Program-made: the position numbers and the translations under genes
Notes under the pieces: generated by a model
What the model was told of the DNA's origin: nothing
Database searches by the model: none
Seen by the model: the letters and a program-made list of their open reading frames with translations, nothing else
Shown here: in pieces, positions 8,000-46,217 of the stretch
Numbering within the stretch: the stretch's first letter is position 1
How the letters are laid out: each line of letters begins with the position of its first letter
DNA from: Torpedo marmorata
Taxonomy: Eukaryota
Direction of reading: 5' to 3'
Assembly (NCBI GenBank): GCA_977017645.1
Contig: OZ360225.1
Span: forward strand, 167,524,001 to 167,588,000
Length of the DNA: 64,000 bases

Positions 8000-8220
8000 T
8001 GTAGTGATAGTGTGCTACCACTAGGAGGAGTTGGAGATGAGTTGTGTGGCAGCTGTTGCATCTTGGGAAACCTATTGCATCTTGGGTAGATTCAAGATGG
8101 ATGCCTCCACATGAGTTCTTGTCTGTGTGTGTTCTGTTCTTAGTGCTGTTTGCTTAAGTTAATAAATGTAGTTGTTTAAAAAGAACCCAAGTTTCTTATT
8201 GTAATAGAAGACACATCACA
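8000..8220 (+). repeat. 5' LTR of Gypsy-1 (221 bp)
   Basis: TGTAGTGAT...CATCACA with AATAAA at 8161. About 12 differences, counted by eye, from the reconstructed 3' LTR. Confidence 0.95.
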
Positions 8221-8235
8221 TGGTACCAGGAGTGG
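8221..8235 (+). promoter_or_regulatory. Primer-binding site complementary to tRNA-Leu(UAA) 3' end
   Basis: TGGTACCAGGAGTGG lies directly after the LTR and is complementary to the vertebrate tRNA-Leu(UAA) end CCACTCCTGGTACCA. Confidence 0.85.
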
Positions 8236-8308
8236 AAGAAACAGCCAGAAGTGGAAGAAACACCAGGAGTGTGCATAGTGAGTATCAGTCGATATCAGCA
8301 GAGAAAAT

Positions 8309-9133
8309 ATGGAGAGTTTAAAAGCTCCTGAAGCTGTAAAATGGACTGGAAATGTCAACCAGGAGTGGAGGATGTTTAAACAAAGATTCATGCTGTATCT
8401 GCAAGGCATTGGAATTGATAGAAAACCGAGTACATGGAAGATTGCAATACTACTTATCTTGGCGGGACCTAAAGCACTAGAGGTTTTCAACACATTTGTT
8501 TTTGCGAGGCAGAAGACCAGGGCAAATTCGACAACGTGATCGAGATGTTTGATGAACACTGTTCACCAAAGAAAAATGAAACGTTCAAGAGGTACATGTT
8601 TCGCTCGCGCACGCAGCTGCAGGGAGAGAGCTTTGATACTTTTTTTAAACAGACTTAAAATTAAAAGCAAGAACATGCAATTTCGGACCACTGCAAGATT
8701 CAATGATCCGTGATCAAACTGTGTTCGGAATTAATGATAAGAAAGTGAGAGAGAGGTTGCTGCGAGAGACAGAGCTTACCTTAGCTGGAGCTGTGAAGAT
8801 ATGCCACGCCAGTGAATTAGCTCTGCAGCAGGCGAAAAAGTTTGGTGATAGTGTAAAAACCAATGAAAATGAAGGCATAGTCATAGCCACAGTATCTGGA
8901 CACACACACAAACAAAATATGAGATATAGGAAACAACAAAAAAATGGAGAGACATTTAATTGTAAATGATGTGGCACTAAACATGCACCAAAATGATGCC
9001 CAGCTTATGGGAAAGTCTGTAATAAGTGCAAAGCGTAGAATCACTATGCAAAGCAATGTTTTTACAAAGGAAAAAAAGACAGAAGTAAAAGTATACACAC
9101 TATAGAAGAAACTGCTCTCAGTGATACACTTTC
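8309..9133 (+). pseudogene. gag: Gypsy gag remnant with tandem CCHC-type knuckles
   Basis: MESLKAPEAVKWTGNVNQEWRMFKQRF, MIRDQTVFGIND and CK*CGTKH..CPAYGKVCNKC..NHYAKQC. Frameshifts and stops. Confidence 0.85.
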
Positions 9134-10050
9134 AAGGTCATTACATTGAGCACGGGGGCTCCCCAGGGCTGTGTGCTTAGTCCATTGCTGTTCACCCTGC
9201 TGACTCATGACTGTGCAGCAAAACACAGCTCAAATCACATCATAAAGTTTGCTGATGATACAACCGTGGTGGGCCTTATCAGTAAGAATGATGAGTCAGC
9301 ATACAGAGATGAGGTGCAGTCGCTAATGGAATGGTGCGGAAACAACAACCAGCAGCTCAACGTGAACAAAACAAAAGAGTTGGTTGTCGACTTCAGAAGG
9401 GCCCTGGGGGATCATTCTCCTTTGACCATGGACGGCTCTACCGTTGAGGTCGTAAAGAGTACCAAGTTTCTTGGAGTGTACTTGGCGGAGAGTCTCAGCT
9501 GGTCCCTAAACACCAGTTGCATAGTCAAGAAAGCCCAGCAGCGTCTTTACTTCCTGTGAAGACTGAGGAAAGTTCATCTCCCACCCCCTATCCTTACTAC
9601 ATTCTACAGGGGATGCATTGAGAGTATTCTGAGCAATTGCATCACAGCTTGGTTTGGAAACTGTACCACCTCGGACCGAAAGACCCTGCAGAGGATAGTG
9701 AGGGCAGCGGAGAAAATTATTGGAGTCTCTCTCCCCACCATGACAGACATTTACAACACACGATGCATGAGGAAGGCTAAAAACATTGCGAAGGACTTAT
9801 CACACCCCTTTGGTAAACTGTTTTCCCCTTTGCCATCTGGAAGGAGTTAGCGAAGCACTCGGGCGCGCACGTCCAGACTGTGCAACAGTTTTTTCCCCCA
9901 AGCCATCAGGCTCCTCAATTCCTAGATATATATGTGTATTAGCATGTTATAGTTTTTCTATTGTATTATGATATTTATGGTCCTGGAGAAACGCTATCCG
10001 TCTTACTGTGTATATGGTAATGAACGACAATTAAAGGTGACTCGACTTGA
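9134..10050 (+). mobile_element. Rex1/Babar LINE 3' part inserted in Gypsy-1 between gag and protease
   Basis: ORF 9146-9559 has STGAPQGCVLSP and KFADDTT. Tail GACTCGACTTGACT. The Gypsy flanks are contiguous in the sister copy at 44220-44250. Confidence 0.92.
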
Positions 10051-13000
10051 CTTTTCGTGGGCATGGTAGTGCAAGAAGTGAACAATGTTGAGCAGGACAA
10101 ATGGAGTGTGTCATTGCATACAAATTGAGCAAATATTCCTTTCAAGATGGACACAGGGGCAAAGGTCAAAATGTGAGCACGACATCAGGGCAATGAAGAT
10201 AAAGCCATACATCCATGCATATCCTGTACAGCTCAAAGCCTACAATGGACAGAGCATCGACACGAAAGGTACATGTAAACTCGAGGTGAAAGTTAAAGAT
10301 AAAGAGCACCACCTCAGGTTCACAGTCGTCCCAGATGGACATTATTCACTGCTTGGTGACAAAGCATGTGAAAACTTAAACCTAGTAAAGAGGGTGTACC
10401 ACATTAAGTGACAATGCACAGAACAGCGTAGAGGAAATATTGGATCAATTTCCAGACATCTTCAAGGGGTTTGGAGTTCTACCATTCACCTATAAGATAC
10501 AGTTAAAGGAGGACGCACAGCCAGTAGTGCATGCTACAAGGCGGGTTCCAGCGGCACTAAAAGAAAATCTCAAGCAGGAACTCGACCGAATGAGGGCGCT
10601 AGGGGTCATAAAGAAAGTGGAGGAGCCCACAAAATGGGTGAATTCAATGGTGTGTGTCAAAAATAAGAACGGTGACCTACACGTGTGCATGGACCCAAAA
10701 GACTTGAATGCCAATATAAAGAGGGAACATTATCAGATTCCAACCAGGGATGAAATTACAAGTGAGATGGGAGGTGCAAAGTTTTTCACTATATTGGATG
10801 CATCCCAGGGCTTCTGGCAAATAAAACTGCATGAAGATAGCACAAAATATTGTACATTTAATACACCATTTGGACGATACTCCTGTCTGAGGATGCCTTT
10901 TGGAATTTCCTCAGCTCCGGAAGTGTTCCACAGGACAATGGAGCACATCATAGAAGGCATAAATGGGGTGCGTGTGTACATGGATGACATGATCCTATGG
11001 GGATCCACACAAGAACAACACAACAAGATTAAAGTTAAACAGAGAAAAATGTCAGTTTGGTGTAAAGGAAATCATCTTTCTGGGAGATAAACTGTCAGAG
11101 GCAGGTGTGGAGCCAGACAAGAGCAAGGTGAAAGCAATTTTAGAGATTCCCAGACCCACTGACAAAAAAGGCTTATTGAGAGTGTTGGGAATGATCAATT
11201 TCATTGTTAAATTCATACCAAACCTGTCTTCTAAAACAATGTACCTAAGGAAGTTGTTACAGGACAAATGTGAATTCAAGTGGACAGACAACCACGAGGA
11301 AGAATGGGGACAACTGAAGACCATTCTAACTACAGAACCAGTACTTTATATGTTCTTTGATGCATCCAGAAGGATGCAAATATCAATGGACGCTTCAAAA
11401 GATGGAATACTACTTCAGGCTGTGGGAGAAGATTGGAGGCCAGTAGCATACGCATCAAGGACGATGACAACATCTGAATGTCGATATGCACAGGTTGAGA
11501 AAGAGTGTCTAGGCCTGGTCTATGGACTCGAGAAATTCCACAGTTATGTGCATGGTCTACCAACATTCGTGGCAGAGACAGGCCACAAACCATTAATAGC
11601 GATAATCAAGAAAAATCTCAGTGAAATGTCACCGAGAATCCAAAGACTGATGATGTTATGACTTTGAATTGGTGTACACACCAGGGAAACCTATTGTGTT
11701 AGCTGATGCGTTATCCAGGGCAACGATGCAGAGTGAAGCACAAAATGAGAGTTCCACAGGGACAGATGTGAATCTCCACGTGAATCTGATCACTGAATCT
11801 CTTCCCGTATCTGACATGAAATCCAAGCAGATCGTAGCTGAAACAGAAAAGGACACTTTTCTACAGAAGGTCATCAAGAATCTGAATGAAGGATGGCCTA
11901 GAGGTGAATGTTAGCCATACTACAACATCAGAGCTGAGCTGAGTGTTGTCAATGGGCTTCTACTCAGACAGAGCAGAATTATCATTCCTCAATCACTGCG
12001 ACAAGAGATGCTGAAAAGGGTGCACGAGGGGCACAATGGAATGGAAAAATGCAAGAGGGCCAGAACAGCTGTTTATTGGGCAGGGATAAATGCTGACATT
12101 GACAGGATGGTTTCCAGCTGTGAGACCTGTTTGAAACATCACGCAAAGCAGGCAAAGGAACCCATGATAATAACTGACTTACCAGCAGAACCATGGCAGA
12201 AATTTGAGACTGAACTGTTCCACATGGATGGAAAGAATTACTTGCTGTTTTTTTTTTTTTAAATATTTTATTTAAAATTTTAAATCACAAAATACATAAG
12301 GTAAAATATAAAATTATCAAAATACTTGTGATATATTTTCACCCCCCCTCCCTCACCCTCCCATCCCTACTAATCTAATAAAATAAAAATAAAAGAAAGA
12401 AAAAGATAGAGTAAGGAGAATGTCAATCTAAAAAAAAAAAACATCTATAAATTAATTTTATTATGGAGGTTAGGTTCGCCAGTAGATCCGATGTCCAGAG
12501 ATCTTCAAATCCTTAAACCGACAACTTTCATACATGGGCTCCAAATTTTTAAAAAGAAATGATATTTATTACGTAAATTGTAAGTGATTTTTTCAAGTGG
12601 TATACATGAACGAAGTTCTGCATGCCATCTTTCTAACCCTAAATCTACATCAGATTTCCAAGTAATAGCAATACATTTCTTTGAAACAGCTAAAGCAATT
12701 CGCAGAAATTCTATTTGATACATATTTAATTTCATCTTAATACTAACTCTTTTAATATCTCTAAACAGAAATATCATAGGGTCCATTGGGAATGTGATTT
12801 TTAATACTTTGTCTAGAAAATTTTTAACTTTCAACCAAAAATCATAAACTTTTGGACAAAACCATGTAGAATGTACAAAATAACCTTCCTCTCTATTACA
12901 TCTAATAATTACTTGCTGGTTATTGACTATCTATCGAACTATTCAGAGATTGCACTGCTTCCTAGCATGTCTGCTGCTTGTGTGATTAAAAATAAGAAAT

Positions 13001-13726
13001 CGATCTTTGCAAGACATGGAATTCCTCAAATTGTCTACAGTGACAATGGACCATGCTACAGTTGTAGAGAATTCCAGAACTTTGCAGAAGAGTATGATTT
13101 TTGACATGTGACTTCAAGTCCTCTGCATCCACAGTCAAACGGTAAAGCAGAGAAAGGAGTTCACATAGTTAAACAGTTGCTGAAGAAAGCGGCTCAGATC
13201 CATATCTAGCTTTATTGAGTTACAGAGCTTAACCACTTGACATGGCGTGTCACTCACTGAGCTTCTGATGGGACGTAGACTACGCACCACACTTCCCTAC
13301 TCTACAGACCCAAACAAGAACATAGATGTCGAAGACGTCGAACGGAAACAAAAGCGTCTGCAATGGAGACAAAAAGCAAACTATGACAAGTCAGCAAGAA
13401 GCTTAGGGCCACTGGCACAACATGATGCAGTGAGACTCAGAGATTCCAACACTTGGGACAAAAAGGCTACTGTTCTTGAGGAAATAAATCCAAGATCCTA
13501 CACTGTCAGAACAGAGGATGGTCAAATACTGAGGAGGAATCGAAACAGCCTGCTGAAAATGCAAGAGATACTGCAGGAACAGACAGATGCAGAAGATTCA
13601 GCCTGCACAGCGACAGAGGAAACACCACCAGCGCTAGACAGTAGTGGACCAGCAGAGCCGACACAAGCACCTGTGTTAAGAAGATCCACATGTGTTATCA
13701 AAGTACCTGACAGACTGAATCTCTAA
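10051..13726 (+). pseudogene. pol: Gypsy pol remnant (protease, RT, RNase H, integrase)
   Basis: FKMDTGAK at 10141. RT ORF 10440-11090 (LDASQGFWQ, MPFG, YMDD). RNase H ORF 11107-11661 (DASKDG, YAQVEKE). Integrase HHCC/core pieces at 12008-12262, 12907-13104 (SDNGP) and 13247-13726. Confidence 0.93.
12248..12906 (-). mobile_element. L1 3' fragment inserted in Gypsy integrase
   Basis: Poly-T and ORF 12505-12834, highly similar to the end of ORF 20626-22779. 12-bp TSD AATTACTTGCTG (12236-12247, 12907-12918). Confidence 0.93.
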
Positions 13727-13894
13727 AAGAAAAAGAACTGCACACTTCAAAGTTTGTGCTGCTGATGTTTATGTTTACGTTTGTGTTGAACTTTAAATTG
13801 AAAGAATACTGTATTAGTGTGTCATATTGTTAGATTAAACATCTCAAGGAAACGGGATGTAGTGATAGTGTGTGTTACGAACTAACAAACCCTG

Positions 13895-14761
13895 TGTAGT
13901 GAGTGAGGTAACAGGTTTGGTGGATCTCAAAGTCAAGGACTCTAGACACAGTTTTGGTCGTAAGGGATTTTATTTTAAAAAGGCTGCCGTGGGAAAATGG
14001 TAACAGATGCAACACACACACACACACAATTTACTGCAGCCTTGGGAAAATCGGATCGGCAATAAAACAATGTGGACAATTAATAACGAACGTGGGAAAA
14101 AGTCGGGACGGCAATAACGCGCTCAGCTTAATAGCGATCGTGGGAAAATCGCCTGGGAACGAAGTACACACACACACATAACCAACTGGGTACATACAAT
14201 AATCAAGGAAAAATCAATACGATGACCCACCACCCCTTGACTCAGTGCAGGCACGGCTCTATGCTACTTAGGGACACTAATTAAATACTCCCAACCCTTT
14301 TAAACAGTGCACATTTTACCAACAATTTCTCCAGCGCCCTTCACGGTTCTAGGCCTGGAGTGAAACAGGGTGGTCCCAAGCTGGAAAAGAGGGAAAACAA
14401 AGAACATGTGGCACCTTTATAGTGCTGGGGGGTCCAGCCCAGGTCGTTAACAGGGGGCCAATGGCTTGGTGCCAGGAAGGTTAATCCAATTACAACAGCC
14501 AATGGCCCAAGGCCAAGTACAGGCAGGCTGGAGAGTCCAGCCTAGGTAATTTACTGGGGGCCAATGGCTCAGTGCCAGCAAGGTTAAGCTGATTACAAAG
14601 GACAATGTCCCAAGGCCAAGTACAAAGGAATTTAAATTGGCCAACAGCAAGGTGTGCACTAATAGGTGGGGCGGGGCTAAACCTTGATTGGCAGGTGGTG
14701 TGTCCTCCGATTAGGTAGGGGGCAGTGCTGTCACGTGACAGCCACAACCCTTCCCAATACA
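13895..14761 (-). repeat. ERV 3' LTR (867 bp)
   Basis: Direct repeat of 18223-19116. Multiple CCAAT boxes; minus-strand TATAAA at ~14415-14420 and AATAAA at ~13968-13973. Confidence 0.93.
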
Positions 14762-15854
14762 ATCCACCCCTCGGAAGTCACACCACTCACCAATCATTAC
14801 GAAGACCATCAATAACTCTATGTATATGTTTAAGTAAAAACAAAAAGACAGGTTTAAAAAAAAGCAATACGAATCAAACAGGTCAATTTATAAACAAGTG
14901 CCTTTGGTATTCTGGACAAGACACAGTCAAATTCAATGACAACACCTCACCAGCCCCCCCCCCACCCCCCCCCGACCAAATAGGGTCGCTGTGTTACCGA
15001 TGGAGCAGGGTGCTGTGGGAGCTGCTCCCCAGTGTCAGAGGGGAGGGTAGAAAAAGGAATTTGTGTGGTCACCGACACGTATGCCTGGTTTCTCCAGCTT
15101 GGTTGGCAAATGTGAGCACCCTTACCACCAACGTCTGCGAGCAGGCAGTGCAAGGTCATCCATCAGGTGCCAGAGCTCTCTCTTGGCGTGCGCATCCTGC
15201 GCCTTGGCCTCACGCTTGGGCGCTCCCTAAGCACAGTTCCCAGATGCATGTCACCGTGCTATCCCGTGGTGAGTCAGGGGGCAGGCCGGCAGGTATACAT
15301 CTAGGGTGTACCGAGAGCACCCTTTTTATGTGGGCTGGTGTTTGACACCAGGATGCCGTTCCTGCTCGCGTTCTCTTTAAACGGGTGCCCCAAGTGCCTG
15401 TGCTGGACCCCTGCAACGATAGTCGCGAGGAGTCGGGACCAAAAGCCAGCCAATTTAGTGTTTTCACATAAACGTCCCCGAAGCCCCCACCCCATGAGGT
15501 GTTTTTCTGTTAATGTGAGTTCTGGGGTGATGCTGTCATTGTGAAACAAAATACATACAATGTTTCCAACCATGGTCTGATTGATGACTTACAAACTGTA
15601 ACTTCAATTTCTCTGAGTGTGCTTAGAGACATTATGCATAGTAAATACCACAGATCATAACAAAGGATGTTGGAATGACAGATGATAAAGTTTCTATAGC
15701 AACAGCTGTTCTCTTGCTGAGACTTTTTTTTGCATAATACCTAACAAACTCTCTTGTTGGTCAGTAGTCAGTTCAGTGTCACTGTTAAGGTGCTAGCAAA
15801 ATCATAAGTGAACCTGAGGAAAGTGTTGGCCGACGTCGCGGTATCGAATAGGTT

Positions 15855-16250
15855 GTAGGGAGCGGCAGCTCCAGGCAGAGATTTTGTCCAGAAGCCTTGC
15901 GAGACTCTGCGCCCTTGGATCTTCTGTCAGAGGTTCCATTCAGCGACCGCCTCACTGGCCGAGACCTGTAATTTAAAAGGAACACCTGCCTGGCAGAGAG
16001 GGGGTGGCAGTGGTTCTTCAACGGCTTGCTTTGCTGTGTCAGAAGCAGCCTGTTGTTCTGGTCACCATAAGAATGTGGCTTTCTTATGGGAGACTCTATA
16101 GGGTGGTTTAAAGAGCATGGTAAGGTGGGATATATGCTGCTGCCAATAAAGGAGGCCCACAAAGCTCTGGGTGTCTGTTTTATTTGAGGGGATGGCAAAA
16201 TTCAAAATTTCATTCTTGGCAGTCTCAGAAATATGTCTTTGGCATCAACT
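15855..16250 (-). pseudogene. pol: ERV pol remnant (RT thumb/connection)
   Basis: Frameshift-corrected minus translation FAIPSNKTDTQSFVGLL.YWQQHISHL...KATFLW*PEQQAA...VPFKLQVSASEAVAEWNL*QKIQGRRVSQGFWTKSLPGAAAPY parallels ERV-L pol (PPTTKKEAQ..VGLFGFWRQHIPHL..FEWGPEQ..WSLWQ..PLGFWSK). Confidence 0.8.
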
Positions 16251-16524
16251 TCCGGTTCGAGCGCAGTTGATTCTAATTTAAATTAAATTATTTTTGGCTG
16301 ACACTCATTTTTCAAAAGTGGCACCTCCCCCCCCCGCCCCCTGCGACGCGGTCCCCTTCCGCTCGCTCCGACGCGCACCCCCCCCCCGTTCGCTCCAACG
16401 CGGCTGACACACCCCCCCCAGACCAATGGAGCGAACGAGGGGGAGAGGGAGGGAGAGAGGGGTGGGGGAGAGAGGGCGGGAGAGGGCAATGGAACAAATG
16501 CGCCGGGGGGGCCTGGCATTCATC

Positions 16525-18168
16525 CTATGGGAGAGGGGTGGGGGTCTGCCACCCCGTGGGTGAGGGTTCCTGCTGGTGCAGATGGGACAATTCCTGTCTC
16601 AGCAGGTCTCTGAGCTCAGTCTTGAGGGCAGGAGAGACTGTTTCGAGTGGGGGAGGAGCAGAGGCAGTGTCAGTGTCAGTGTCGACGGGGGCAGCCCTGC
16701 GCTTGATCCCAGGGTGGTTGTGGGTTTTCCCCTGGCCAGATTTCCCCCCCACAAAGCTCTTTCCACAGCGCGTAAATGGCAGAGGTCGAGATCACATCAA
16801 TTCTGGCGCGGTCCGCCCCTGTGCGCAGCAGATCCAAGTACAGCTGCCTGCGTGTAAAGCGGGGAGGGATTGTGTTTCCAGCCCTTGCCTCTGCACTACG
16901 GACCTGGGTGGGTGCCCCCCGCTGCATGTATTCTAGCCCTTGCAGGAGGGTGATGGCGTCCCACACGGTCTTCCCATTAGCTGGTGCCATGTGGGGCAGG
17001 ACCACTGACTTTAAATCGGGGCGCGCGGTGGTGACCAGGTATCCTGCTAGGGCACCGGTCACCTGGGTATTTTCTAAAAAATTACAGTCGCGGGCACCCT
17101 GGTAGATGCCATTAACCAGCACCAACTCTCTAATAACCCAGGTGCCCTCACTGACCGTGCCCCATTGTGGGCGCCCGTGTAGATCCCACTCCATGAGGGT
17201 GGGGTACTGGACCCTCACCGCAGTCACTACCCGATCCCACAGGGTAGCGCCATCCCGGATCTCTGGCCGTGGCGCCCATAGGGCATTGTTGATGCTTTGT
17301 TGGTCAGAGAGGCTCCCCAGGGCATTCGCCTCTTGATGAGCAAGGCTCAAGTTGGGTGTCCCCTCATCCCACAGCCGGAGTAACCATGCGGCCACGTGCT
17401 CGCCCGGCTGTTGGCGGTACCGATCCCCCAGCTGGGTCAGCTCCTTTGGGGAGAAATCCCGGGTCTCTGTGGTCTCAGTGTGACCACGGGCATGCCCCCC
17501 TGCGACTTGGTCATCCTCACCTTCCTCCTCTCTGCGGTGGACCTGGGACCGCGTGGTGACAGGTCGAGCGTGCAGGGGTTCGGGTGCATAAGGGGAAGGG
17601 TGGTAGTAGGACCTAGGCTCCTCGGGCACCCCCTCCTCATCACTGTTTAACCATATATCCCCATCCCCCAGCCACGCGTCCAGATTTTACCGTGCTGGAC
17701 CAGGGCTCGGATGTTTTGCGGGTCAGTCTGCCAGCCAGACCTGCTGCAGCTGTATGAGCCTGCAGGTGACTTAAGTCCCCCTGACCTCGAGATCGTTGGC
17801 TTGAGTCTGGGCCGCTTGTACTGCCTCCTGCAGCGTGCAGCAGCGGTGCCGGAGCTCTTCTAACTCCCTGTCCTTCTGGTTGCCTAAATGCTGGATCTGG
17901 CCAGTAATCCCGACCTGGCGTCTCAGAAAGGACGTGAACAGCCAAAAGGCACCCCTTTGACTTTTGGGAACCCAGACTTCTTAAGGAGGGAGACCACGTG
18001 GTGCCCCAGTTTCTCGCCACGTGGGTCCAACTGCTTGGACCAGTCCACTGCTTTACCGTGGTCCGCCAGCATGCTGGCCAAGCGTTCAAATCCCTCCCTC
18101 TCATCGGTCCACCCGGGAATCCTATCCTCAGTGCCTACACTGGCTTTTTTGCCCCTGTTCCAGAACAT
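16525..18168 (-). pseudogene. gag: ERV-L/Fv1-like gag with frameshifts
   Basis: ATG at 18168 (MFWNRGKK). ORF 16676-17629 contains FSPKELTQLGDRYRQQPGEHVAAWLLRLWDEG...LGSLS, the ERV-L gag/Fv1 capsid signature. The C-terminal piece ends with TAG at 16525. Confidence 0.85.
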
Positions 18169-18202
18169 TCTCCCATGCCTGTGTCCAGCCAAGACCTCTG
18201 AG

Positions 18203-18220
18203 ACCCTGCTTGCAGCGCCA
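18203..18220 (-). promoter_or_regulatory. ERV primer-binding site, best match tRNA-Ser(CGA)
   Basis: Minus strand TGGCGCTGCAAGCAGGGT, 2 nt after the 5' LTR. Compare TGGCGCTGTGAGCAGGAT, the complement of vertebrate tRNA-Ser(CGA) as recalled from memory. Confidence 0.65.
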
Positions 18221-18222
18221 CT

Positions 18223-19116
18223 TGTTGTGAGTGAGGAAACACGTTTGGTGGGTCTCAAAGGCAAGGACTCTTGACACACAGTTTTGTAGTAAGGGATTTT
18301 ATTTTAAAAAGGCAGCTGTGGGAAAATGGTAACAGATGCAGCACACACACACACACACAATTTACAGTAGCCGTGGGAAAATTTGATCGGCAATAAAACA
18401 ACACGGAAAATTAATAACGAACATGGGAAAAAGTCGGGACAGCAATAAAAAACGCACTCAGCTTAATAGCGATCGTGGGAAAATCGCATGGGAACAAAGT
18501 ACACACACACATACAACCAACTGGGTACATACAATAATCAAGGAAAAATCAATACGATGCCCCACCACCCCTTGACTCAGTGCAGGCACGGCTCTATACT
18601 ACTTAGGGACACTAATTAAACGCTCCCAACCCTTTTGAACAGTGCACATCTTACCAACAATTTCTCCAGTGCCCTTCCACTGTTCTAGGCCTGGAGTGAA
18701 GTAGGGTGGTCCCAAGCTGGCAAAGAGGGAGAACAAAGAACATGCTGGAGGGCTAGGGGGTCCAGCCCAGGTCTTTAGCAGGGGGCCAATGGCTCGGTGC
18801 CAGGAAGGTTAATCCAATTACAACAGCCAATGGCCCAAGGCCAAGTGCAGGCAGGCTGGAGAGTCCAGCCCAGGTAATTTACTGGGGGCCAATGGCTCAG
18901 TGCCAGCAAGGTAAAGCTGATTACAAAGGCCAATGGTCCAAGGCCAAGTACAAAGGAATTTAAATTGGCCAACGGCAAGGTGTGCACTAATGCGTGGGTC
19001 GGGGCCAAATCTTGATTGGCAGGTAGTGTGTCCAAATCTTGATTGGCAGGTGGTGTGTCCTCCGATTAGGTAGGGGGCAGTGTTGTCACTTGACAGCCAC
19101 GACCCTTCCCAATACA
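18223..19116 (-). repeat. ERV 5' LTR (894 bp)
   Basis: Direct repeat of 13895-14761, adjacent to the PBS. Has an extra ~27-bp tandem duplication at ~19006-19060. Confidence 0.93.
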
Positions 19117-20352
19117 CCCTGTTAGTACTAACAAAGGAACAGCAATGGAAGATGCACCAGTCAATGGTAAATCCAAAAGAATAGTTTTATTTAAACTATT
19201 AATAACATAACATATCTTACTTATCTCTAAACTTAACTTTAACTTAAACCCCACTATACGCAAATGTAAATGTGTGTGTGTTAAAGTTTAAACTTGATTT
19301 TGAAAAATCAATTTTTAAAGTCCAGTTTCAAACTTCTTTTGTTGAACTTCAGGATTCCTTTAAATTGTGTTTCAGAAGTAATTATAAAGCCAAAGTGAAG
19401 CATCCGATTTTTTCAATCTCACAAGTCTTTTGATGAGTTGTCTTTCAGATATAGTCTTCATACGTGTGTTTTCACAAGTTTCCCCCTATCTTGTTAGGGT
19501 TACGGAACTGTGATCTTCAAGATGATTTCTTTCTTAATCAGCGTGACCATCTTTTCATGGACACACGAGGCTGCTTCTTATATGTAGTCAGAAGTGGTGT
19601 TACTTATTTTAAAAGCCACTTATTGTATATCTCCTATGGTAAGGATAATACACAAAACAGCACCTCTATCTATTTCAGAGATCACTGCTTCAAATTCTGT
19701 CTTTCCAGAAAGTCAAATTTCTTCAGTCTGATTCAAAATGTCTCTCTGCCTTCAGTATATAGTTCTCTGACATCATGTGACGTGACATCAGCACAGTTTC
19801 ATTTCTACAAAACCTCCAGCCTTTCTCCAAAACCACTTCATATCCATAAAGACATCTGACCTCATCTCTGTTTAAGTGGCTATGTCTCCGGAAAGTCTGA
19901 CACATGTCACTTAAATGGCACTTGAGTTTGCAACAGTTGCAGGCATAATGCTTTTAAGAACCACACATTGTCCTGAAATCCATTAAGATCCAGACGCTGC
20001 GACTCCAAGCTGACACTTTTTCTCTTAGTGCAGTGGTGTATCTGGAAATGTGATGTGACCTGTGTGTGACCCTGTACCATCCCACAACTAACCTTACCAA
20101 AAATATCTATATTTCTATAACTTAACTTTAAGTATTAATATTAACTTTAAGACATCCGTTACATGTGCTACCACTAGGAGGAGTCGGAGAGGAGTTGTGT
20201 GGCAGCTGTTGCATCTTGGGAAACCTGTTGCATCTTGGGTAGATTCAAGATGGATGCCTCCACATGAGGTCTTGTCTGTGTGCGTTCTGCTCTCAGTACT
20301 GTTTGCTTTAGTTAATAAATGTAGTTGTTTAAAAAGAACCCAAGTTTCTTTA

Positions 20353-22938
20353 CTTTTTTAAAAATTATTTTATTTAAACTTTTAAATCACAAAATACATA
20401 AAATAAAATATATAATCATCAAAATACATGTGATACATTTTCACCCCCCCACCTCCCTCTCCTCCCTAACCCCCCCATCCCCACTAATCTAGTAATATAA
20501 AGTAAAAATAAAAATAAAAATAGAAAAAAGAAAGAAAGGAAAAGATAGAATAAGGGGAATATCATCTATAAACTAATTCTATTACGGAGGTCAAGTATGC
20601 CAGTAGATCTGATATCTAGAGATCTTCAAATCCCTAAACCCACAGCTCTCATATATGGGCTCCAAATTTTCAAAAAGAAATGATATTTATTACGTAAATT
20701 ATAAGTAATTTTTCCCAGTGGCATACACGAACGAAGCTCTGCATGCCATCTTTCTAATCCTAAATCTAAATCAGATTTCCAAGTAATAGCAATGCATTTT
20801 TTCGAAACCGCTAAAGCAATTCGTAAAAATTCTACTTGAAACATATTTAATTTCTTTTTAATACTAAATTTTCTAATATCTCCAAATAAAAATAACATAG
20901 GATCCATTGGAAATGTAATATTAAATACTTTATCTAAATTTTTTTTAACTTTCAACCAAAAATCTTGAATCTTTGGACAAAACCATGTAGAATGAACAAA
21001 AAAGCCTTCCTCATTATTACATCTAAAACATAATCCTGATAATGTCGGATTAAATTTCTTTAATTTTTTAGGTGTTAAATATAATTGATGAAAGAAATTA
21101 TACTGTACTAATCTATATCTAACATTAATAATTTTTGTCATACTTAACTTACATAAATCTTTCCAATGAATCTCATCTATATTTACATTTAAATCTAGTT
21201 CCCATTTTAATCTTGATTTGTGCAATCCTATTTTAGGCATTTTCCTCTGAAACAATTTATACATTTGAGAAATAAATTTATTAACTTCTCCATTAGTAAC
21301 TAATAATTCTAATTCATTTTGTCTTGGTAAAATCAAAGCATGACCTAATTTCTCGGTTAAAAAATCTTTAACTTGATAATAAGCTAAAAATGTATTATCT
21401 AATATATTAAATTTATCTTTCATTCTTTGAAACGTAATAAATCTTCCAGCTTCAAAACAATCATTAATCTTCTTAATACCTTTTTGAAACCAAATTTTAA
21501 ATAACTGATTATTAACAGTAAATGATATAAGTCCATTTTGATATAATGGCATATTTGAAGAAATTAATCCTCTTCCACCTATCTCTTTATCCAATTTACC
21601 CCATATTTCTAACAGATGTTTAATAATCGGTGAATTTTTCTTTTTTACTGATATTAATTTAGAATCCCATTTATAAATAATCTCTTCTTTAAAATTTTCT
21701 CCTATATTATTTAATTCTATTTTAATCCAAGCAGAAGTTTTATTTGAATCAAAAAATTCATTAACAAATTTTAATTGGGCTGCTTTATAATAATTTTGAA
21801 AATTAGGAAGTTGCAATCCACCCAACTCATAATTCCAAGTTAACTTTTCCATGCTTACTCTTGCTAACTTTCCTTTCCATAAAAAATTCCTAATAATAAA
21901 ATTTAAATCTTTAAAATTTTTTTGAGGAATTCCAAAAGGAATTGATTGAAAAAGATACTGAACTCTTGGAAAAATATTCATTTTAATACAATTTACCCTT
22001 CCCATTAAAGTTATGGGTAAATCTTTCAAATTCTCTAAATCTTTCTTTATTTTCACAAATAATGGTAGATAATTTAATTTATATAAGTTTTCCAATTTTG
22101 TATCAACCTTAACCCCCAAATATTTAATTCCTTCTTTAGCCCATTTAAATTGTGTAATTTCTTTACATCTAGTATAATCACCTTGAGATAAAGCCATTAT
22201 TTCACTCTTATCTGAATTAATTTTATATCCAGATATTTTACCATATTCTCTTAATTTAATAGATAATTGTTGAAGTGATATAATAGATTTTGTCATATAT
22301 ATCAATACATCATCTGCAAACAAACTAATTTTATGTTCTTCCGTACCAACTTTAATACCCACTCTTTTAGGATCTTTTCTAACTAATTCAGCCAAGGGTT
22401 CTATTGCCAAAACAAATAAAGCTGGTGACAGGGGACATCCCTGTCTCGTAGAACGTGTCAAAGAAAATTTTGGCGATATTTGTCCATTTGTAATTACTTT
22501 AGCTGATGGTTCTTTATATATAGTTTTAATCCAATTTATAAATGTATTTCCAAAACCAAATTTTTCTAATACCTTAAATAAAAAATTCCATTCTAATCTA
22601 TCAAAAGCCTTTTCAGCATCTAATGTTACAACTAATGGTAAATCTTGCTTCTTTTTATGCAAACCAATTAATCTAGCTATATTATCCTTTGAATATCTAT
22701 TTTTAATAAAACCAGCTTGATCTAGATGTATCAAATCTGGCAAATATTTAGCCAATCTGTTTGCTAAAATTTTTGCCATTATTTTATAATCTACATTTAA
22801 TAATGAAATAGGTCTATGATTCAGTTTTTAATACATCTCTATCTTTCTTTGGTATAACTGTAATTATAGCATTTAAAAATGTTTTCGGTAATAAATGAGT
22901 TTCCGTAATTTGATCTAGTACTTCCATATATGGAGGTA
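20353..22938 (-). mobile_element. Young 5'-truncated L1 (2.6 kb) inserted in the Gypsy-1 3' LTR
   Basis: 13-bp TSD CCAAGTTTCTTTA (20340-20352, 22939-22951), T-rich tail and a long open ORF. Confidence 0.95.
20626..22779 (-). CDS. L1 ORF2 partial (RT plus C-terminal cysteine-rich domain), 717 aa uninterrupted
   Basis: LDAEKAFD, TRQGCPLSP, FADD, YLG, GGLQLP and CFRC...HSTWFC. Confidence 0.92.
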   Translation of the reverse strand: MAKILANRLAKYLPDLIHLDQAGFIKNRYSKDNIARLIGLHKKKQDLPLVVTLDAEKAFDRLEWNFLFKVLEKFGFGNTFINWIKTIYKEPSAKVITNGQISPKFSLTRSTRQGCPLSPALFVLAIEPLAELVRKDPKRVGIKVGTEEHKISLFADDVLIYMTKSIISLQQLSIKLREYGKISGYKINSDKSEIMALSQGDYTRCKEITQFKWAKEGIKYLGVKVDTKLENLYKLNYLPLFVKIKKDLENLKDLPITLMGRVNCIKMNIFPRVQYLFQSIPFGIPQKNFKDLNFIIRNFLWKGKLARVSMEKLTWNYELGGLQLPNFQNYYKAAQLKFVNEFFDSNKTSAWIKIELNNIGENFKEEIIYKWDSKLISVKKKNSPIIKHLLEIWGKLDKEIGGRGLISSNMPLYQNGLISFTVNNQLFKIWFQKGIKKINDCFEAGRFITFQRMKDKFNILDNTFLAYYQVKDFLTEKLGHALILPRQNELELLVTNGEVNKFISQMYKLFQRKMPKIGLHKSRLKWELDLNVNIDEIHWKDLCKLSMTKIINVRYRLVQYNFFHQLYLTPKKLKKFNPTLSGLCFRCNNEEGFFVHSTWFCPKIQDFWLKVKKNLDKVFNITFPMDPMLFLFGDIRKFSIKKKLNMFQVEFLRIALAVSKKCIAITWKSDLDLGLERWHAELRSCMPLGKITYNLRNKYHFFLKIWSPYMRAVGLGI

Positions 22939-30410: not shown

Positions 30411-31875
30411 GAAACACGAAAGGCTGTGACGGTAGTAAAAACACAGAAATGCTGGAGGAACTCAGCAGGTCTTGCAGCATCCATAGGAGGTAAAGATATA
30501 TTACTGACGTTTTGAGCCTGAGCCCTTCCTCAAAGTATGAGTAAAAAGCAGGCAGGCACTGAAATTAAAAGGCTGGTGAAAAGGGAAGAATGGGACAAAA
30601 AGTGTTAACTGGATAGGATAAGAGGACAGGAGAGAGGAAAGCTGAGAATTGATTGGGGAGGGGGGTTGTTTTTGGCTCCATGAAAGGAGACAGGGAGACA
30701 GAGGGAAAAAGGAAGAGAGAGACAGACCTAGAGGAATGGAGACAGAAACTGGAGAAGTCGATGTTAATGCTATCAGGTTGGAGTGTGCCCGAACGGAATA
30801 TAAGGTGTTGTTCCTCCAATTTGCGGTGGTCTCAGTCTGGCAGTGCATGAGACCATGGACAGACATGTTGGCAAGGAATGGGGCGAGAAATTGTAATGGG
30901 TGGCCACTGGGAGATCCCCGCTATTGTGGCAGACAGAGCCGAGGTGCTCAACAAAATAATCTCCCAGTCTGCGTCCAATCTCTCCAATGTAGAAGAGACC
31001 ACAATGGGAGCACTGGATACAGTAGATGACCATTGCAGATTCACAAGTGAAATGTTGCTTCACTTGGAAGGACTTTTTGGGGCCCCGAATGGTGGTGAGG
31101 GAGGAGGTGTGGGCGGAAGTAGAGCGCCTTCTGCATTCACAAGGGTAGGTTCCAAGGGGGCAATTGGTGGGGAGGGAGGAGTGGACGAGAGAGTCATGGA
31201 GGGAGTGGTCCCTATGGAAGGCAGAGAGGGAAGGAGAGGGGAAGATGTGTCTGGTGGTGGGATCACGTAGTAGGTGGCCGAAATGGTGGAGGATGATATG
31301 TTTGATGCAGAGGCAGGTGGGTTGCAAGGTGAGGACATGGGGAATCCTGTCCTTGTTGTGTGTTAGGGCGGAGGGGGCCAGAGCAGATGTGCAGGTAATG
31401 GAGGATATCCGGGTGAGGGCCGAGTTGATGGTGATAGAGGGGAAGCCATGCTGTTTGAAGAAGAAGGACATCTCTGATGATCTGGCATGGAAGACCTTGT
31501 TCTGGGAGAAGATGTGATGGAGACAAAGGAATTTAGATAAAGGGATGGAATCCTTACAGGGGATAGGGTGTGAAGAGTTGTAGTCAAGGTAGTTGTGGGA
31601 GTTGGTGGGTCTCTAGAAGATGTCTGTCAAGAGTTTGTCTCCCGAGATGGAGACAGAGAGATTGAGAAAAGCGACAGTGTTGTTAGAGATGTACCAAGTG
31701 AATTTGAGGTCAGGGTGGAAGCTGGCAGCAAAATGGATAAAGTTGAAGAGCTCATCATGGGTTCATGAGCCAACATCAAATAGTCGTTGTCATCGATGTA
31801 GCGGAGGAAGAGTTGAGGAGCCTTGCCTGTGTAGGCTTGTAGCATGGATTGCTCCAAGTAGCCAACAAAAAGGCA
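30411..31875 (-). mobile_element. Penelope-like element, 5'-truncated (RT C-terminus, GIY-YIG, pLTR)
   Basis: ORF 31627-31917 has LFVGYLE...FLRYIDD. ORF 30773-31471 has FTCESAMVIYCIQCSHCGLFYIGEIGRRLGDYFVEH (GIY-YIG). Confidence 0.93.
30500..30539 (-). ncRNA. Degenerate minimal hammerhead motif in Penelope pLTR
   Basis: Minus strand CATACT TTGAGGA A GGGC TCAG GCTC AAAA CGTC AGTAA. The GAAA box is mutated. Confidence 0.45.
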
Positions 31876-33226: not shown

Positions 33227-34390
33227 GAGCTCATCCATTCTCCCACTCAGCCCCACTCCCCTACTTTCTCCCCATAATCTCTGAAACCCTGACTATTCAG
33301 AGACCTGTCAATCTCTGCCTTAAATACACCCAATGTCTTGGCCGCCACAGCCACCCGTGGTAGCAAATTCCAGAGGATTATCACTCTCTCGCTAAAGAAA
33401 TTCCTCTGCGTCTCTGTTTTAAATGGGCGTCCTTTAATTCTGAAGTTGTTCCCTCCTGTCCTAGACTTCCCTACTATGGGAAACAACTTTTCCACATCTT
33501 CTGTCTAGGCCTTTCAACATTCTAAATGCTTCTTCTATGAGGTTCCCCTCATTCTTCTGAACTCGAATGAGTACAGACCAAGAGCTATCAAATGTTCCTC
33601 ACAGGCTAATCCCTTCATTCCAGGAATCATTCTTTTTTATTTTATTTTTTTTAATTATTTTATTTAAACTTTTAAATCACAAAATACATAAAATAAAATA
33701 TAAAATTGTCAAAATACATGTGATACATTTTCACCCCCCCCACCTCCCTCCCCTCCCTAACTCCCTCATCCCCACTAATCTAGTAATATAAAGTAAAAGT
33801 AAAAATAAAAATAGAAAAAGGAAAGAAAGGAAAAGATAGAATAAAGGGAATATCATCTATAAACTAATTCTATTACGGAGGTCAAATGTGCCAGTAGATC
33901 CGATATCTAGAGATCTTCAAATCCCTAAACCCACAGCTCTCATATATGGGCTCCAAATTTTCAAAAAAAAAAAAGATATTTATTACGTAACCAGGAATCA
34001 TTCTTGTGATTCTTCTTCGAACCCTCTCCAATGCCAGAACACCCTTTCTTAAATAAGGAGTCCAAAGCTATATACTGTATTCCAAGTGCCTTTTTAAGCC
34101 TTAACATCACATCCCTGCTATGAATGCCAACATTGCTTTTGTCTTCTTCACCACTGACTCAATCTGGAGGTTAACCTTTAAGGTATCCTGCACGATGACT
34201 CCCAAGTCCATTTGCATCTTCAAATTTTGAATTTTATCCCTTTTATTCCTTCTACCAAGGTGCATGACCATACACTCTACAACACTTTCTATTATTTGCC
34301 ATTTCTTGGACCATTCTACTAATCTATCTAAGTCTCTCTTCATTCTCTCAGTTTCCTCCTCACTACCTGCCCCTCCACCTTATCTTTGTA
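33227..34390 (-). mobile_element. CR1 3' fragment interrupted by L1 (33635-33990)
   Basis: ORFs 33247-33495 (RNFFSERV..LWNLLP) and 34107-34343 (DLDRLVEWSKKWQ). Confidence 0.85.
33635..33990 (-). mobile_element. L1 3' fragment (same family as 20353-22938)
   Basis: Near-identical to 20360-20698. TSD CCAGGAATCATTCTT (33620-33634, 33991-34005). Confidence 0.93.
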
Positions 34391-42182: not shown

Positions 42183-45176
42183 TTGTGATGTTTCTTTTAT
42201 TGTAATAAAGAAACTTAGGTTCTTTTAAAACAACTATACTTTATTAGCTTTATCATGACCGCGTGGAGGCATCCATCTTGAATCCAACAGAGCTGAACAA
42301 ACTAGTCTCTGACTCCCTCTAGTGGTCGGGAGGATCACTAGCACTCTATCACGACATCCCCTTTCCTTGAGATGTTTAATCTAACAACATGACACATTAA
42401 TACAGTATTCATTTCAATTTAAAGTTCAACACAAAAGTAAACACAACATCAGCTGCACAAACTTTTTAAGTATGCAGTTCATTTTCTTTTATAGATTCAG
42501 TCTCTGAGGTGCTTTGATAACACATGTGGATCTTCTTAACACAGGTGCTTGTGTCGGCTCTGCTGGTCCACTATTGTCTAGCACTGGTGGTGTTTCCTCT
42601 TTTGCTGTGCAGGCTGGATCTTCTGCATTTGTCTGTTCCTGCAGTGTCTCTTGCGTTTTCAGCAGGCTCTTTCGATTCCTTCTCAGTATTTGACCATCCT
42701 CTGTTCTGACAGTGTAGGATCTTGGATTTACTTCCTCAAGAACAGTAGCCTTTTTGTCCCAAGTGTTGGAATCTCTGAGTCTCACTGTGTCATGTTGTGC
42801 CAGTGGCCCTAAGCTTCTTGCTGACTTGTCATAGTTTGCTTTTTGTCTCCATTGCAGACAATTTTGTTTCCGTTCGACATCTTCAACATCGCTGTTTTTA
42901 TTTGGGTCTGCAGAGTAGGGAAGTGTGGTGCGTAGTCTACGTCCCATCAGAAGCTCAGCAGGTGACATGCCATGTTCAAGTGGTGAAGCACTGTAACTCA
43001 ATAGAGCTAGATCTAGTCTAGTGCTTTCTTGAGCAACTGTTTAACTATGTGAACTCCTTTCTCTGCTTTACTGTTTGACTGTGGATGCAGAGGACTTGAA
43101 GTCACATGTCAAAAATCATACTCTTCTGCAAAGTTCTGGAATTCTCTACACCTGTAGCATGGTCCATTGTCACTGTAGACAATTTGAGGAATTCCATGTC
43201 TTGCAAAGATCACACAAGCAGCAGACATGTTAGGAAGCAGCGCAATCTCCGGATAGTTTGATAGATAGTCAATAACCAGCAGGTAATTCTTTCCATCCAT
43301 ATGGAACAGATCAGCCCCAACTTTCTGCCATGGTTTTGCTGGTAAGTCAGTTATTATCATGGGTTCCTCTGCCTGCTTTGCGTGATGTTTCAAACAGGTC
43401 TCACAGCTGGAAACCATCCTGTCAATGTCAGCATTTATCCCTGGCCAATAAACAGCAGTTCTGGCCCTCCTCTTGCATTTTTCCATTCCAAGGTGCCCCT
43501 CATGCACCCTTTTCAGCATCTCTTGTCGCAGTGATTGAGGAATGATAATTCTGCTCTGTCTGAGTAGAAGCCCATTGACAACACTCAGCTCAGCTCTGAT
43601 GTTGTAGTATGGCTGACATTCACCTCTAGGCCATCCTTCATTCAGATTCTTGATGACTTTCTGTAGAATTGTGTCCTTTTCTGTTTCAGCTGCGATCTGC
43701 TTGGATTTCATGTCAGATACGGGAAGAGACTCAGTGATCAGGTTCATGTGGTGATTCACATCTGTCTCTGTGGAACTCTCATTGTGTGCTTCACTCTGCA
43801 TCATTGCCCTGGATAACGCATCAGCTAACACAATAGGTTCCCTGGTGTGGACACCCTCTTGACTAGGCTCAAGTTTTCACATGCTTTGTCACCAAGCAGT
43901 GATTCATGTCCATCTGGGACTACTGCGAACCTGAGGTGGTGCTCTTTATCTTTAACTTTCATCTTGAGTTTACATGTACCTCTTGTGTCCATGCTCTGTC
44001 CATTGTAGGCTTTGAGCTGTACCGGATTAGCATGGATGTATGGCTTTATCTTCATTGCCCTGATGTCGCGCTCAAAGATCAAATTGACTTTTGCCCTGTG
44101 TCCAGCTTGAAAGCAATATTTGTTCCATTTGTATGCAATGACACAGTCCACTTATCCTGCTCGACTCTGTTCACACTCGGCTGTTCAGTGTCTGTTGGTT
44201 TATAATATTCCTGCACTACCATGCCAACGAAAAGTGTATCACTGAGGGCAGTTTCTTCTATAGTGTGTACAGTGTGCACGCTTTCACTTCTGTTTCGTTT
44301 CCCTTTGGAACAACATTGCTTTGCTTAGTGATTCTGCCCTTTGCACTTATTACAGACTTTTCCATAGGCGGGGCATTGTTTTGGTACATGTTGAGTGCCA
44401 CATTGTTTGTAATTGAATGTCTCTCCATCTTTTTCTTGTTTCCTATATCTCGTTTTTTGTTTGTGTGTGGACAAACATTGTGGCAATGGCTATGCCTTAG
44501 TTTTCATTGGCTTTTGCACTCTCACCAAACTTTTTCACATGCTGCAGAGCTAATTCACTGGCGTGGCATATCTTCACAGCTCCAGCTAAGGTAAGCTCTG
44601 TCTCTCGCAGCAACCTCTCTCTCACTTTCTTATCAATAATCCCGAACACAATTTGATCACTGATCATTGAATCTTGCAGCGGTCTGAAATTGCATGTTCT
44701 TGCTTTTAATTTCAAGTCTGTTAAAAAAGTGTCAAAGCTCTCTCCCTGCAGCTGCGTGCGCGAGCAAAACACGTACCTCTTGAACGTTTCATTTTTCTTT
44801 GGTGAACAGTGTTCATCAAACATCTCGATAACCTTGTCGAACTTGCCCTGGTCTTCTGCCTCGGCAAAATCGAATGGATTGAAAACCTCTAGTGCTTGAG
44901 GTCCCACCACGGTAAGTAGCAGTGCAATCTTCCATGCATCAGGTTCATTATCGACTACAATGCCTTGCAGGTACAGCATGAATCTTTGTTTAAACAACCT
45001 CCACTCGTGGTTGACATTTCTAGTCTAATTTACAGCATCAGGAGCCTTCACACTTTCCATATCTCTGCTGCTATATCGACCGATTCTCACTCCTTGTACC
45101 ATGTGATGTTTCTTTTATTGTAATAAAGAAACTTGGGTTCTTTTAAAACAACTATACTTTATTAGCTTTATCATGA

Positions 45177-46027
45177 ACAGTCAGGAGAGGAGAGAGAGAG
45201 GAGAGGAGAAGAGAAGACAGAGGAGAAAAGAGTCGGGGGCAAGGCAAGGTAAGAAAGCTTTTTTAAAAGTCTCTTACCGGGGCCTGTGGCAAGGGTCCGA
45301 AGAGGAGTCGGCGTCGGAGGCGGCCATTGGTCGGGCGGGCCTACAGGAGAGCGTGTCGGGAAGGTAAGGTCTTCTTAAGGGCTCTTACCGAGGGCAGGGT
45401 CTAACAGTCAGGAGAGGAGAGAGAGAGGAGAGGAGAAGAGAAGACAGAGGAGAAAAGAGTCGGGGGCAAGGCAAGGTAAGAAAGCTTTTTTTAAAGTCTC
45501 TTACCGGGGCCTGCGGCAAGGGTCCGAAGAGGAGTCGGCGTCGGAGGCGGCCATTGGTCGGGCGGGCCTACAGGAGAGCGTGTCGGGAAGGTAAGGTCTT
45601 CTTAAGGGCTCTTACCGAGGGCAGGGTCTAACAGTCAGGAGAGGAGAGAGAGAGGAGAGGAGAAGAGAAGACAGAGGAGAAAAGAGTCGGGGGCAAGGTA
45701 AGAAAGCTTTTTTAAAAGTCTCTTACCGGGGCCTGCGGCAAGGGTCCGAAGAGGAGTCGGCGTCGGAGGCGGCCATTGGTCGGGCGGGCCTACAGGAGAG
45801 CGTGTCGGGAAGGTAAGGTCTTCTTAAGGGCTCTTACCGAGGGCAGGGTCTAACAGTCGGGAGAGGAGAGAGAGAGGAGAGGAGGAGAGAAGACAGAGGA
45901 GAAAAGAGTCGGGGGCAAGGTAAGAAAGCTTTTTTAAAAGTCTCTTACCGGGGCCTGCGGCAAGGGTCCGAAGAGGAGTCGGCGTCGGAGGCGGCCATTG
46001 GTCGGGCGGGCCTACAGGAGAGCGTGT
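45177..46027 (+). repeat. Tandem ~225-bp monomers (3.8 copies) in the CR1 5' UTR
   Basis: Units start at 45177, 45404, 45631 and 45853 and are near-identical. Each has a GA-rich tract, CCATTGG and GGGCGGG. Confidence 0.95.
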
Positions 46028-46217
46028 AGGGGTTAATTGGTCAAAGGCCAATAAATAAGAGGGACAGGGAGCGGCCCAGCGAGTGAGTGGCACAGCGAAG
46101 GAGTGGGACCTCTAGGCTTTGGCTCATCAGGCTTCGGCGAGCACAGGCTGAGGACGCGTCACTGAACACTAAGGTAAGAATCTTATTAGTCTTATTACGA
46201 TTTCATTGGGGTCCAGG

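Follow-up and report, generated by a model that had tools for sequence, protein, structure and literature searches.

Did batoids, independently of mammals, give rise to a class III endogenous retrovirus (ERV) family that kept gag and shed almost all of pol? This question is raised by a provirus on the minus strand, at positions 13895-19116, of a 64-kb stretch of Torpedo marmorata DNA (contig OZ360225.1 of GenBank assembly GCA_977017645.1, forward-strand positions 167,524,001 to 167,588,000; hereafter the window). From the sequence alone, a MaLR-like non-autonomous family had been proposed for this provirus (the original prediction). The analysis of its anatomy, its relatives and its copies in public sequencing runs makes a different history rather probable, in which the element stems from a batoid class III lineage that has many copies and an ERV-S/XtERV-S-like build, lost its genes in two steps and has since decayed.

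Anatomy, age and gag of the provirus

The endpoints of the provirus were found to be exact. Its long terminal repeats (LTRs), predicted as a pair of ~0.88 kb, measure 867 nt (3' LTR, 13895-14761, minus strand) and 894 nt (5' LTR, 18223-19116, minus strand), both with TGT..ACA ends, and enclose an internal region of 3461 nt, in agreement with the 3.46 kb given before. An AATAAA is present in both (at 13974 and 18303). The U3 of the 3' LTR contains internal repeats of ~100 nt, and that of the 5' LTR has an extra 27-nt repeat unit. The block around the TATA box differs between the two LTRs: the 3' LTR harbours a TATAAA at 14421 (block 14405-14425), while the matching stretch near 18745 in the 5' LTR has none. 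The predicted 5-bp target-site duplication is CCCTG, at 13890-13894 and 19117-19121. The provirus is a true integration, because it split a 1.06-kb solo-LTR-like element which itself splits the 3' LTR of a Gypsy element.

The polypurine tract (PPT) GAGGGGTGGA lies at 14772-14763, as predicted, and is separated from the 3' LTR by one spacer base (14762-14772 in total, minus strand). The Ser-like character of the primer-binding site (PBS; 18203-18220, minus strand) was likewise upheld. Compared by eye with the 3' 18 nt of human tRNA-Ser-CGA-1-1 (sequence from PMC10359600), 18220-18203 matches at 15 of 18 positions; the fit to Ser-AGA/TGA (12/18) and Leu-CAA (10/18) is poorer. No tRNA genes were found in the 64-kb window.

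Alignment of the two LTRs showed 801 identical positions of 857, with 9 gaps, giving a Kimura two-parameter (K2P) distance of 0.069, or 0.045 without CpG sites. At rates of 2.2e-9 and 2.2e-10 per site and year, as used in PMC4422223, this corresponds to a loosely known age of roughly 16 to 156 million years. The provirus is now dead, with its gag broken and its 5' LTR lacking the TATAAA seen in the 3' LTR.

The gag gene (16525-18168, minus strand) is of the ERV-L/Fv1 type, an assignment for which homology now provides the evidence. Its reading begins with the ATG at 18168 and ends with the stop at 16527; in between, it is interrupted by three in-frame stops and several frame switches that the original prediction had not mentioned. 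The longest stop-free piece (17686-16679, 336 aa) contains the capsid region and has 166 relatives at E ≤ 0.001. The 20 relatives looked up are vertebrate gene models or unnamed, three of them being named Fv1-like (from Narcine, chinchilla and pipefish). Gag was not recognised by Pfam or Protein Data Bank (PDB) sequence searches. The structure model of the gag core is confident (mean predicted local distance difference test score 80) and resembles retro-capsid lobes weakly, the best match being the capsid domain of MOAP1 (Z 5.8); foamy capsid aligned over 146 residues with Z 5.4 and a root-mean-square deviation of 5.2. A Foldseek search with the model yielded no match at E ≤ 0.001. In a quick gag tree, which kept 99 of 161 homologues and from which the three closest stingray pieces had dropped for short overlap, the window copy and Narcine grouped at 85, unstarred; this grouping was not used as proof.

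The pol relic, its relatives and the missing genes

Pol survives as a relic of ~400 nt (15843-16243, minus strand), the length predicted. It runs from 16243 to about 15845, the lower end being approximate (15843-15873), encodes the thumb of the reverse transcriptase (RT) and the connection (degenerate RNase H-like) domain, and contains two stops and a codon gap. Its likeness to the RT of murine leukemia virus is weak (E about 0.002); with P0003, a gene model of the stingray Hemitrygon akajei, it shares 65 % identity (E 1e-43). The RT of P0003, which has a YIDD motif, runs in frame into the thumb, at the point where the window relic begins; the RT core is deleted in the window copy. By length against the gene model P0165, pol has lost at least 0.95 kb upstream of the relic and at least 2.0 kb downstream of it.

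Motif scans and shuffle-tested comparisons agreed with the earlier failure to recognise protease, YxDD, integrase or env. In the three frames of the provirus no YxDD, protease motif in coding position, CX6CC or immunosuppressive domain (ISD) was found; an LDTG at 18188 is located in the leader and was taken as chance. Remnants of protease or RT were not detected in 16760-16244, where 9 of 20 shuffles scored as high. Class III queries for RNase H, integrase, dUTPase and connection, together with the single env relative, gave no score above shuffles in 14763-15850, while the positive control of this test scored 249 against a shuffle mean of 24. A six-frame Pfam and atlas comparison of the same stretch was blank. 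An env with a class I-type transmembrane (TM) subunit was undetectable in the window copy, by Pfam and in a comparison with one env relative that ends before the membrane anchor: weak candidates at 15596-15525, at 15509 and at 15159 (E 0.16-2.6 by tblastn against 3.4 kb) are not supported, 7 of 40 shuffles scoring as high. Rejected were 15509-15213 as a remnant of the integrase C-terminal SH3 domain, unsupported by Pfam, PDB, atlas or profile, and 15850-15500 as decayed continuing pol, with scores at shuffle level (21/40 and 35/40 shuffles as high). A word-indexed search with the pol relic gave no match, and viral and metagenome contigs, scanned at the protein level and for a PPT-LTR pattern, yielded none either.

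The closest proteins are from the stingrays Hemitrygon and Hypanus (gag pieces 63-77 %, pol relic 55-67 % identical), and these batoid matches favour the chondrichthyan affinity that had been predicted. The gag of P0003 is 77 % identical to that of the window copy over 84 aa. In P0164 of Hypanus sabinus the connection continues into RNase H and integrase (rve), the model ending inside integrase. In P0014, also of H. sabinus, a C-terminal gag piece (66 % over 62 aa) is followed by a gamma-type env that has both ISD and CX6CC (TLV_coat, E 5.6e-15), an arrangement that speaks against a lineage without env such as ERV-L proper. The Narcine Fv1-like gag is more distant (33 %). The closest gene models, from stingrays and an electric ray (XP_072911374.1, LOC132402424, XP_059826944.1 and XP_069772250.1), are automatic models, not described viruses. 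P0001, P0003 and P0014 are chimeras in which a TRIM/A33-like gene or a Gypsy RT piece has been spliced to pieces of the family, or gag to env; they are probably annotation artefacts, yet mark loci of the family. The autonomous partner sought by the original prediction thus has candidates in P0003, P0164 and P0014: judged from these predicted genes, complete-type partners exist in stingrays. Unlike the stingray and electric-ray models, the window copy is without RT core, RNase H, integrase or env.

In a tree of the pol relic (9 rows, 134 columns, gene models only; P0082 and P0083 left out for short overlap) the window copy grouped with P0003 and P0164 at 97/97. A wider clade, at 98/98, adds Pols of frog, lizard and bichir; P0169, a mammalian gene model (Talpa), is placed outside this wider clade.

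ERV-L proper is primed by tRNA-Leu, as its family name indicates, unlike the window element, whose PBS fits Ser-CGA better than Leu-CAA. ERV-L proper further has a dUTPase behind integrase and no env; the stretch concerned is deleted in the window copy. The assignment to class III made by the original prediction was retained: the ERV-L/Fv1-type gag is a class III feature, as are the TGT..ACA ends and the 5-bp duplication (PMC8278194). Within class III, the build of the lineage looks more like ERV-S/XtERV-S than like ERV-L, in view of the Ser PBS and of the class I env in a close relative. As far as the consulted parts of PMC8278194 describe it, XtERV-S of Xenopus tropicalis shares with the window element the ERV-L-type gag-pol, the Ser PBS, the TGT..ACA LTR ends and the 5-bp duplication, and also a class I-type TM env, which in the batoid lineage is seen in a relative only. 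The same source lists 19 deleted copies (Xt-S4 to S22), of which 11 are structurally alike, that keep PBS, leader, 5' gag and PPT; the window element is likewise internally deleted with PBS and PPT retained. Unlike XtERV-S, for which a Ser(AGA/TGA) PBS is given there, the window PBS fits Ser(CGA), and unlike the deleted Xenopus copies so described, the window element resides in a batoid, keeps all of gag plus the thumb/connection relic and apparently has far more copies. Class III gag-pol, a serine primer and a class I env are also ascribed to the HERV-S/HSERVIII supergroup in the available parts of PMC4724089 and PMC5210030; this comparison was by description, the pol tree holding no named HERV-S sequence.

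Mammalian MaLRs are described as pol-less and env-less (PMC11359688, available text). With ERVL-MaLR, as presented in parts of PMC11359688 and PMC4724089, the window element has in common an ERV-L-type gag, no env, no working pol, a presumed helper dependence and very abundant LTRs. It differs from the MaLRs of these accounts by its ~400-nt pol relic, by a protease-RT loss that is absent from the listed long contigs of other copies (see below), and by its non-mammalian host and independent origin. The element works like a non-autonomous class III element, yet it does not belong to the MaLRs, because it has a pol relic, is non-mammalian and has an upstream loss that was not seen to be shared.

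Chondrichthyan ERVs have been described as the CmiERV lineages (PMC4422223) and ERV-Spuma.0-Sca (PMC10699275). By the descriptions available, which set them apart from the window element, these are snakehead-, epsilon- or foamy-like and none is ERV-L/ERV-S-like; the consulted part of PMC4977317 gives the same picture. The accessible text of PMC10435555, PMC11835228, PMC8672886, PMC2329609 and PMC5210030 holds no batoid case. No batoid ERV-L/ERV-S-like or MaLR-like family was found in the literature, of which supplements, subscription papers, ERV surveys and Dfam/Repbase may hold one.

Copies, junctions and the proposed history

Words of the internal region were found in twelve public runs from six organisms, with at most 29 % of the words in any run; no RNA run was among the listed runs carrying them. 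Contigs of four runs were aligned to the window at 80 % likeness: 10130 of X1, 133 of X2, 4911 of X4 and 516 of X5. Contig detail covers 32 of ~15,800 pieces and 24 of ~1,700 loose ends. The element is present in many copies. At the LTR edge 14761, loose ends occur in 64 contigs of X1 and 62 of X4 with an agreement of 0.36-0.37, and the flanks there are mutually unrelated, as many independent insertions would give.

The two ends of the pol relic behave differently in these copies. The downstream junction (~15850), where RNase H and integrase are missing, looks common to other copies: one organism has a long contig across it, and two others have shorter ones. Record 13 of X2 aligns over 16243-15683, differing in 18 letters and by 5 gap letters, and passes ~15850 colinearly. 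Variants at 15850 are found in 32 contigs of X1 and 22 of X4, which extend at most 52 and 88 letters further. All four runs show an even depth over 15757-16248, and pieces of X2 and X5 tile most of the 1.07-kb 3' segment that follows (14773-15842, minus strand). A protein difference of ~35 % from the stingray Pols cannot be accounted for by the 18 letters in which the X2 contig differs; the deleted family is therefore a lineage of its own and not a decayed P0003. The upstream gap, the loss of protease and RT, does not look common to other copies. Record 13 of X2 and record 28 of X5 leave the element at 16243, with 256 and 344 other letters, and record 14 of X2, which shares with the window copy the short native stretch past the gag stop (16474-16524, minus strand), leaves it at 16474 with 237 other letters. 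Thus all three listed long contigs that reach this gap (two in X2, one in X5) run off, which argues that other copies do not have the protease-RT loss of the window copy; these contigs would continue into protease and RT, since P0003 carries an RT running into the thumb. Position 16343 is covered by two contigs of X1, one of X4 and none of X2 and X5, with a summed depth of 13 (X1) and 18 (X4) as against hundreds to thousands elsewhere. The proposal that copies share both junctions is therefore supported for ~15850 and not for the upstream one; put the other way round, the upstream loss looks private to this copy, and the downstream loss does not.

A break near 16250 had been predicted and is present, not as a plain join but as a foreign segment of 230 nt (16244-16473), delimited by the contig run-offs, that replaces protease and the RT fingers and palm. 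This filler has a CpG observed/expected ratio of 0.87, poly-C runs and a G+C-rich imperfect hairpin at about 16324-16470 that is strong (DNA fold z -5.25, 0 of 200 shuffles as extreme). Two hairpin matches in Rfam were judged chance. An X5 contig matches the filler at 16306-16341 alone, which suggests that this piece is part of a separate repeat.

These data are best accommodated by the two-step history. In it, a class III virus with env, a Ser primer and ERV-L-type gag-pol would have entered batoid germ lines. In a first, shared step an ancestor would have lost RNase H, integrase and any env, its RT connection becoming joined to the 1.07-kb 3' segment. This derivative kept LTRs, PBS, gag and PPT, so that helper proteins could have packaged, reverse-transcribed and integrated its RNA; complete relatives may thus have provided RT/RNase H and integrase in trans for many rounds of copying and insertion. 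Retroviruses commonly include defective families that are mobilised in this way, and it is on this established biology and on the shared ~15850 junction that trans-mobilisation is proposed. The second step, confined to the window copy or to a small branch, would have put the filler in the place of protease and RT core, through deletion with insertion either during reverse transcription or after integration. Insertion into the solo LTR within the Gypsy LTR, with duplication of 5 bp, and subsequent decay would complete this order of events.

Several observations weigh against this history. The env link is one predicted gene model, P0014. Certain bridging of 15850 is seen in one listed contig; record 27 of X5 extends just 28 letters beyond it, and record 3 of X1 just 16. 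With three run-off contigs, taken from low-depth runs, the sample is small, and 16243 is absent among the six loose ends listed each for X1 and X4 (1677 more are unlisted). The bin 16249-16371 still has a mean depth of 1267 in X1 and 1885 in X4, depth not being copy number, and the G+C-rich hairpin with its poly-C runs can depress coverage of the filler. On account of these few contigs, the unlisted 16243, the depth in this bin and the hairpin, a minority subfamily sharing the filler could exist. Furthermore, the sampled runs are probably from relatives and not from the host, as at most 29 % of the words are present.

The widest alternative is a stepwise, independent replay of MaLR evolution in batoids, from an env-bearing ERV-S-like virus via a high-copy family without RNase H, integrase and env to a gag-only branch that includes the filler and to still shorter forms of LTRs plus 3' end, both amplified in trans across several ray species, with gag kept by selection. 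This reading is unlikely; if it were true, a single genome would contain all the intermediates that have been lost in the case of mammalian MaLRs. The MaLR-like gag-only family as such is unlikely to about the same degree or slightly more so, and its strict form, in which many independent copies share both junctions, gag is under selection and pol is lost, is quite unlikely. High copy number and one shared junction are what survives of it; in X1 and X4 the filler bin is in part well covered, and the low depth at 16343 could be technical. Moreover, when compared with the stingray relatives, conservation of the pol relic does not exceed that of gag (65-67 % vs 66-77 %), and the relic has the longest branch of its clade (0.30 vs 0.09+0.09). 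The gag-only part is not supported, however, in view of the retained pol relic, the broken gag of the window copy, the sparse contigs over 16343 and the departure of all three listed long contigs from the element at the upstream gap.

The 3' segment gives rise to another reading, equally doubtful, in which the class III 5' half (gag-pro-RT) was joined by recombination to the 3' segment of a more abundant LTR element of the same swarm. The segment has no detectable pol or env similarity and is colinear with contigs of other copies, and G+C changes in steps along 16243-14763 (0.49, 0.38, 0.56, 0.34). Its part 14896-15510 has a depth of ~2-6x the pol level in X1 and ~10x in X2 and X4; over these three runs it exceeds gag or pol 2-10x. 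The same pattern is predicted, however, by shorter derivatives of the same family that keep LTRs and 3' end, comparable to the deleted Xenopus copies in the available text of PMC8278194, and no donor was found. One X1 contig skips 14829-15480, a further deletion form of this kind; shorter derivatives or another element share 14896-15510. That both losses are post-insertion decay of a complete provirus, with junction-crossing copies as orthologues or duplications of one locus, is very improbable: the copy is old and broken (K2P 0.069) and its upstream loss looks private, but in X1 and X4 the surroundings of the 3' junction are covered by tens of distinct contigs that carry different variants, and organisms B and E have contigs that follow the 3' segment colinearly but diverge at 16243.

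Under the favoured two-step history, an apparently abundant ERV-L/ERV-S-like lineage is added to cartilaginous fish, in which the ERVs of the partly available descriptions are snakehead-, epsilon- or foamy-like, and the data suggest that complete-type partners are accompanied by a swarm of deletion derivatives. Should a branch that keeps gag and lacks pol prove to have been amplified with gag under selection, the question why gag is retained in non-autonomous class III elements would gain a second test case. For the present, the result usefully annotates an element of a known kind: class III families with deletions have been described outside mammals before, in Xenopus (PMC8278194, accessible part).

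The surrounding nest and neighbouring elements

The provirus is the innermost of a three-level nest at 8000-20352. The solo-LTR-like element it splits (13873-20163, ~1.06 kb without the insert) has TG..CA ends and a 4-bp TGTG duplication. The outermost element is a Gypsy-type retrotransposon on the plus strand (8000-20352) with a 5' LTR at 8000-8220 and remnants of RT and integrase, whose 3' LTR starts at 13858 and resumes at 20164. Its LTRs diverge by K2P 0.052 ± 0.016 over 181 nt, within error of the 0.069 of the provirus; the insertions are therefore close in time. A second copy of this Gypsy family, at 42184-45176 (minus strand), is internally deleted, 87-94 % identical, and has both LTR ends with an uninterrupted 3' LTR. 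Beside it lies a tandem array (45176-46031) of about four units of 222-227 nt that are 96-99 % alike.

A long interspersed nuclear element (LINE) at 20626-22827 (minus strand) has a 733-codon stop-free RT/zf-RVT frame and is apparently young. With its 3' end it interrupts the 3' LTR of the Gypsy element, inside whose body a further copy lies; ends of related LINEs are found at about 7940, 12247-12879 and 33641-33990. A 279-codon frame at 30773-31612 (minus strand), without a Pfam match, reads like what we take to be the C-terminal (GIY-YIG-type) part of a Penelope-like element. At 46173-50110 a near full-length CR1-type LINE is present, with a GDSL-esterase ORF1, endonuclease and RT.

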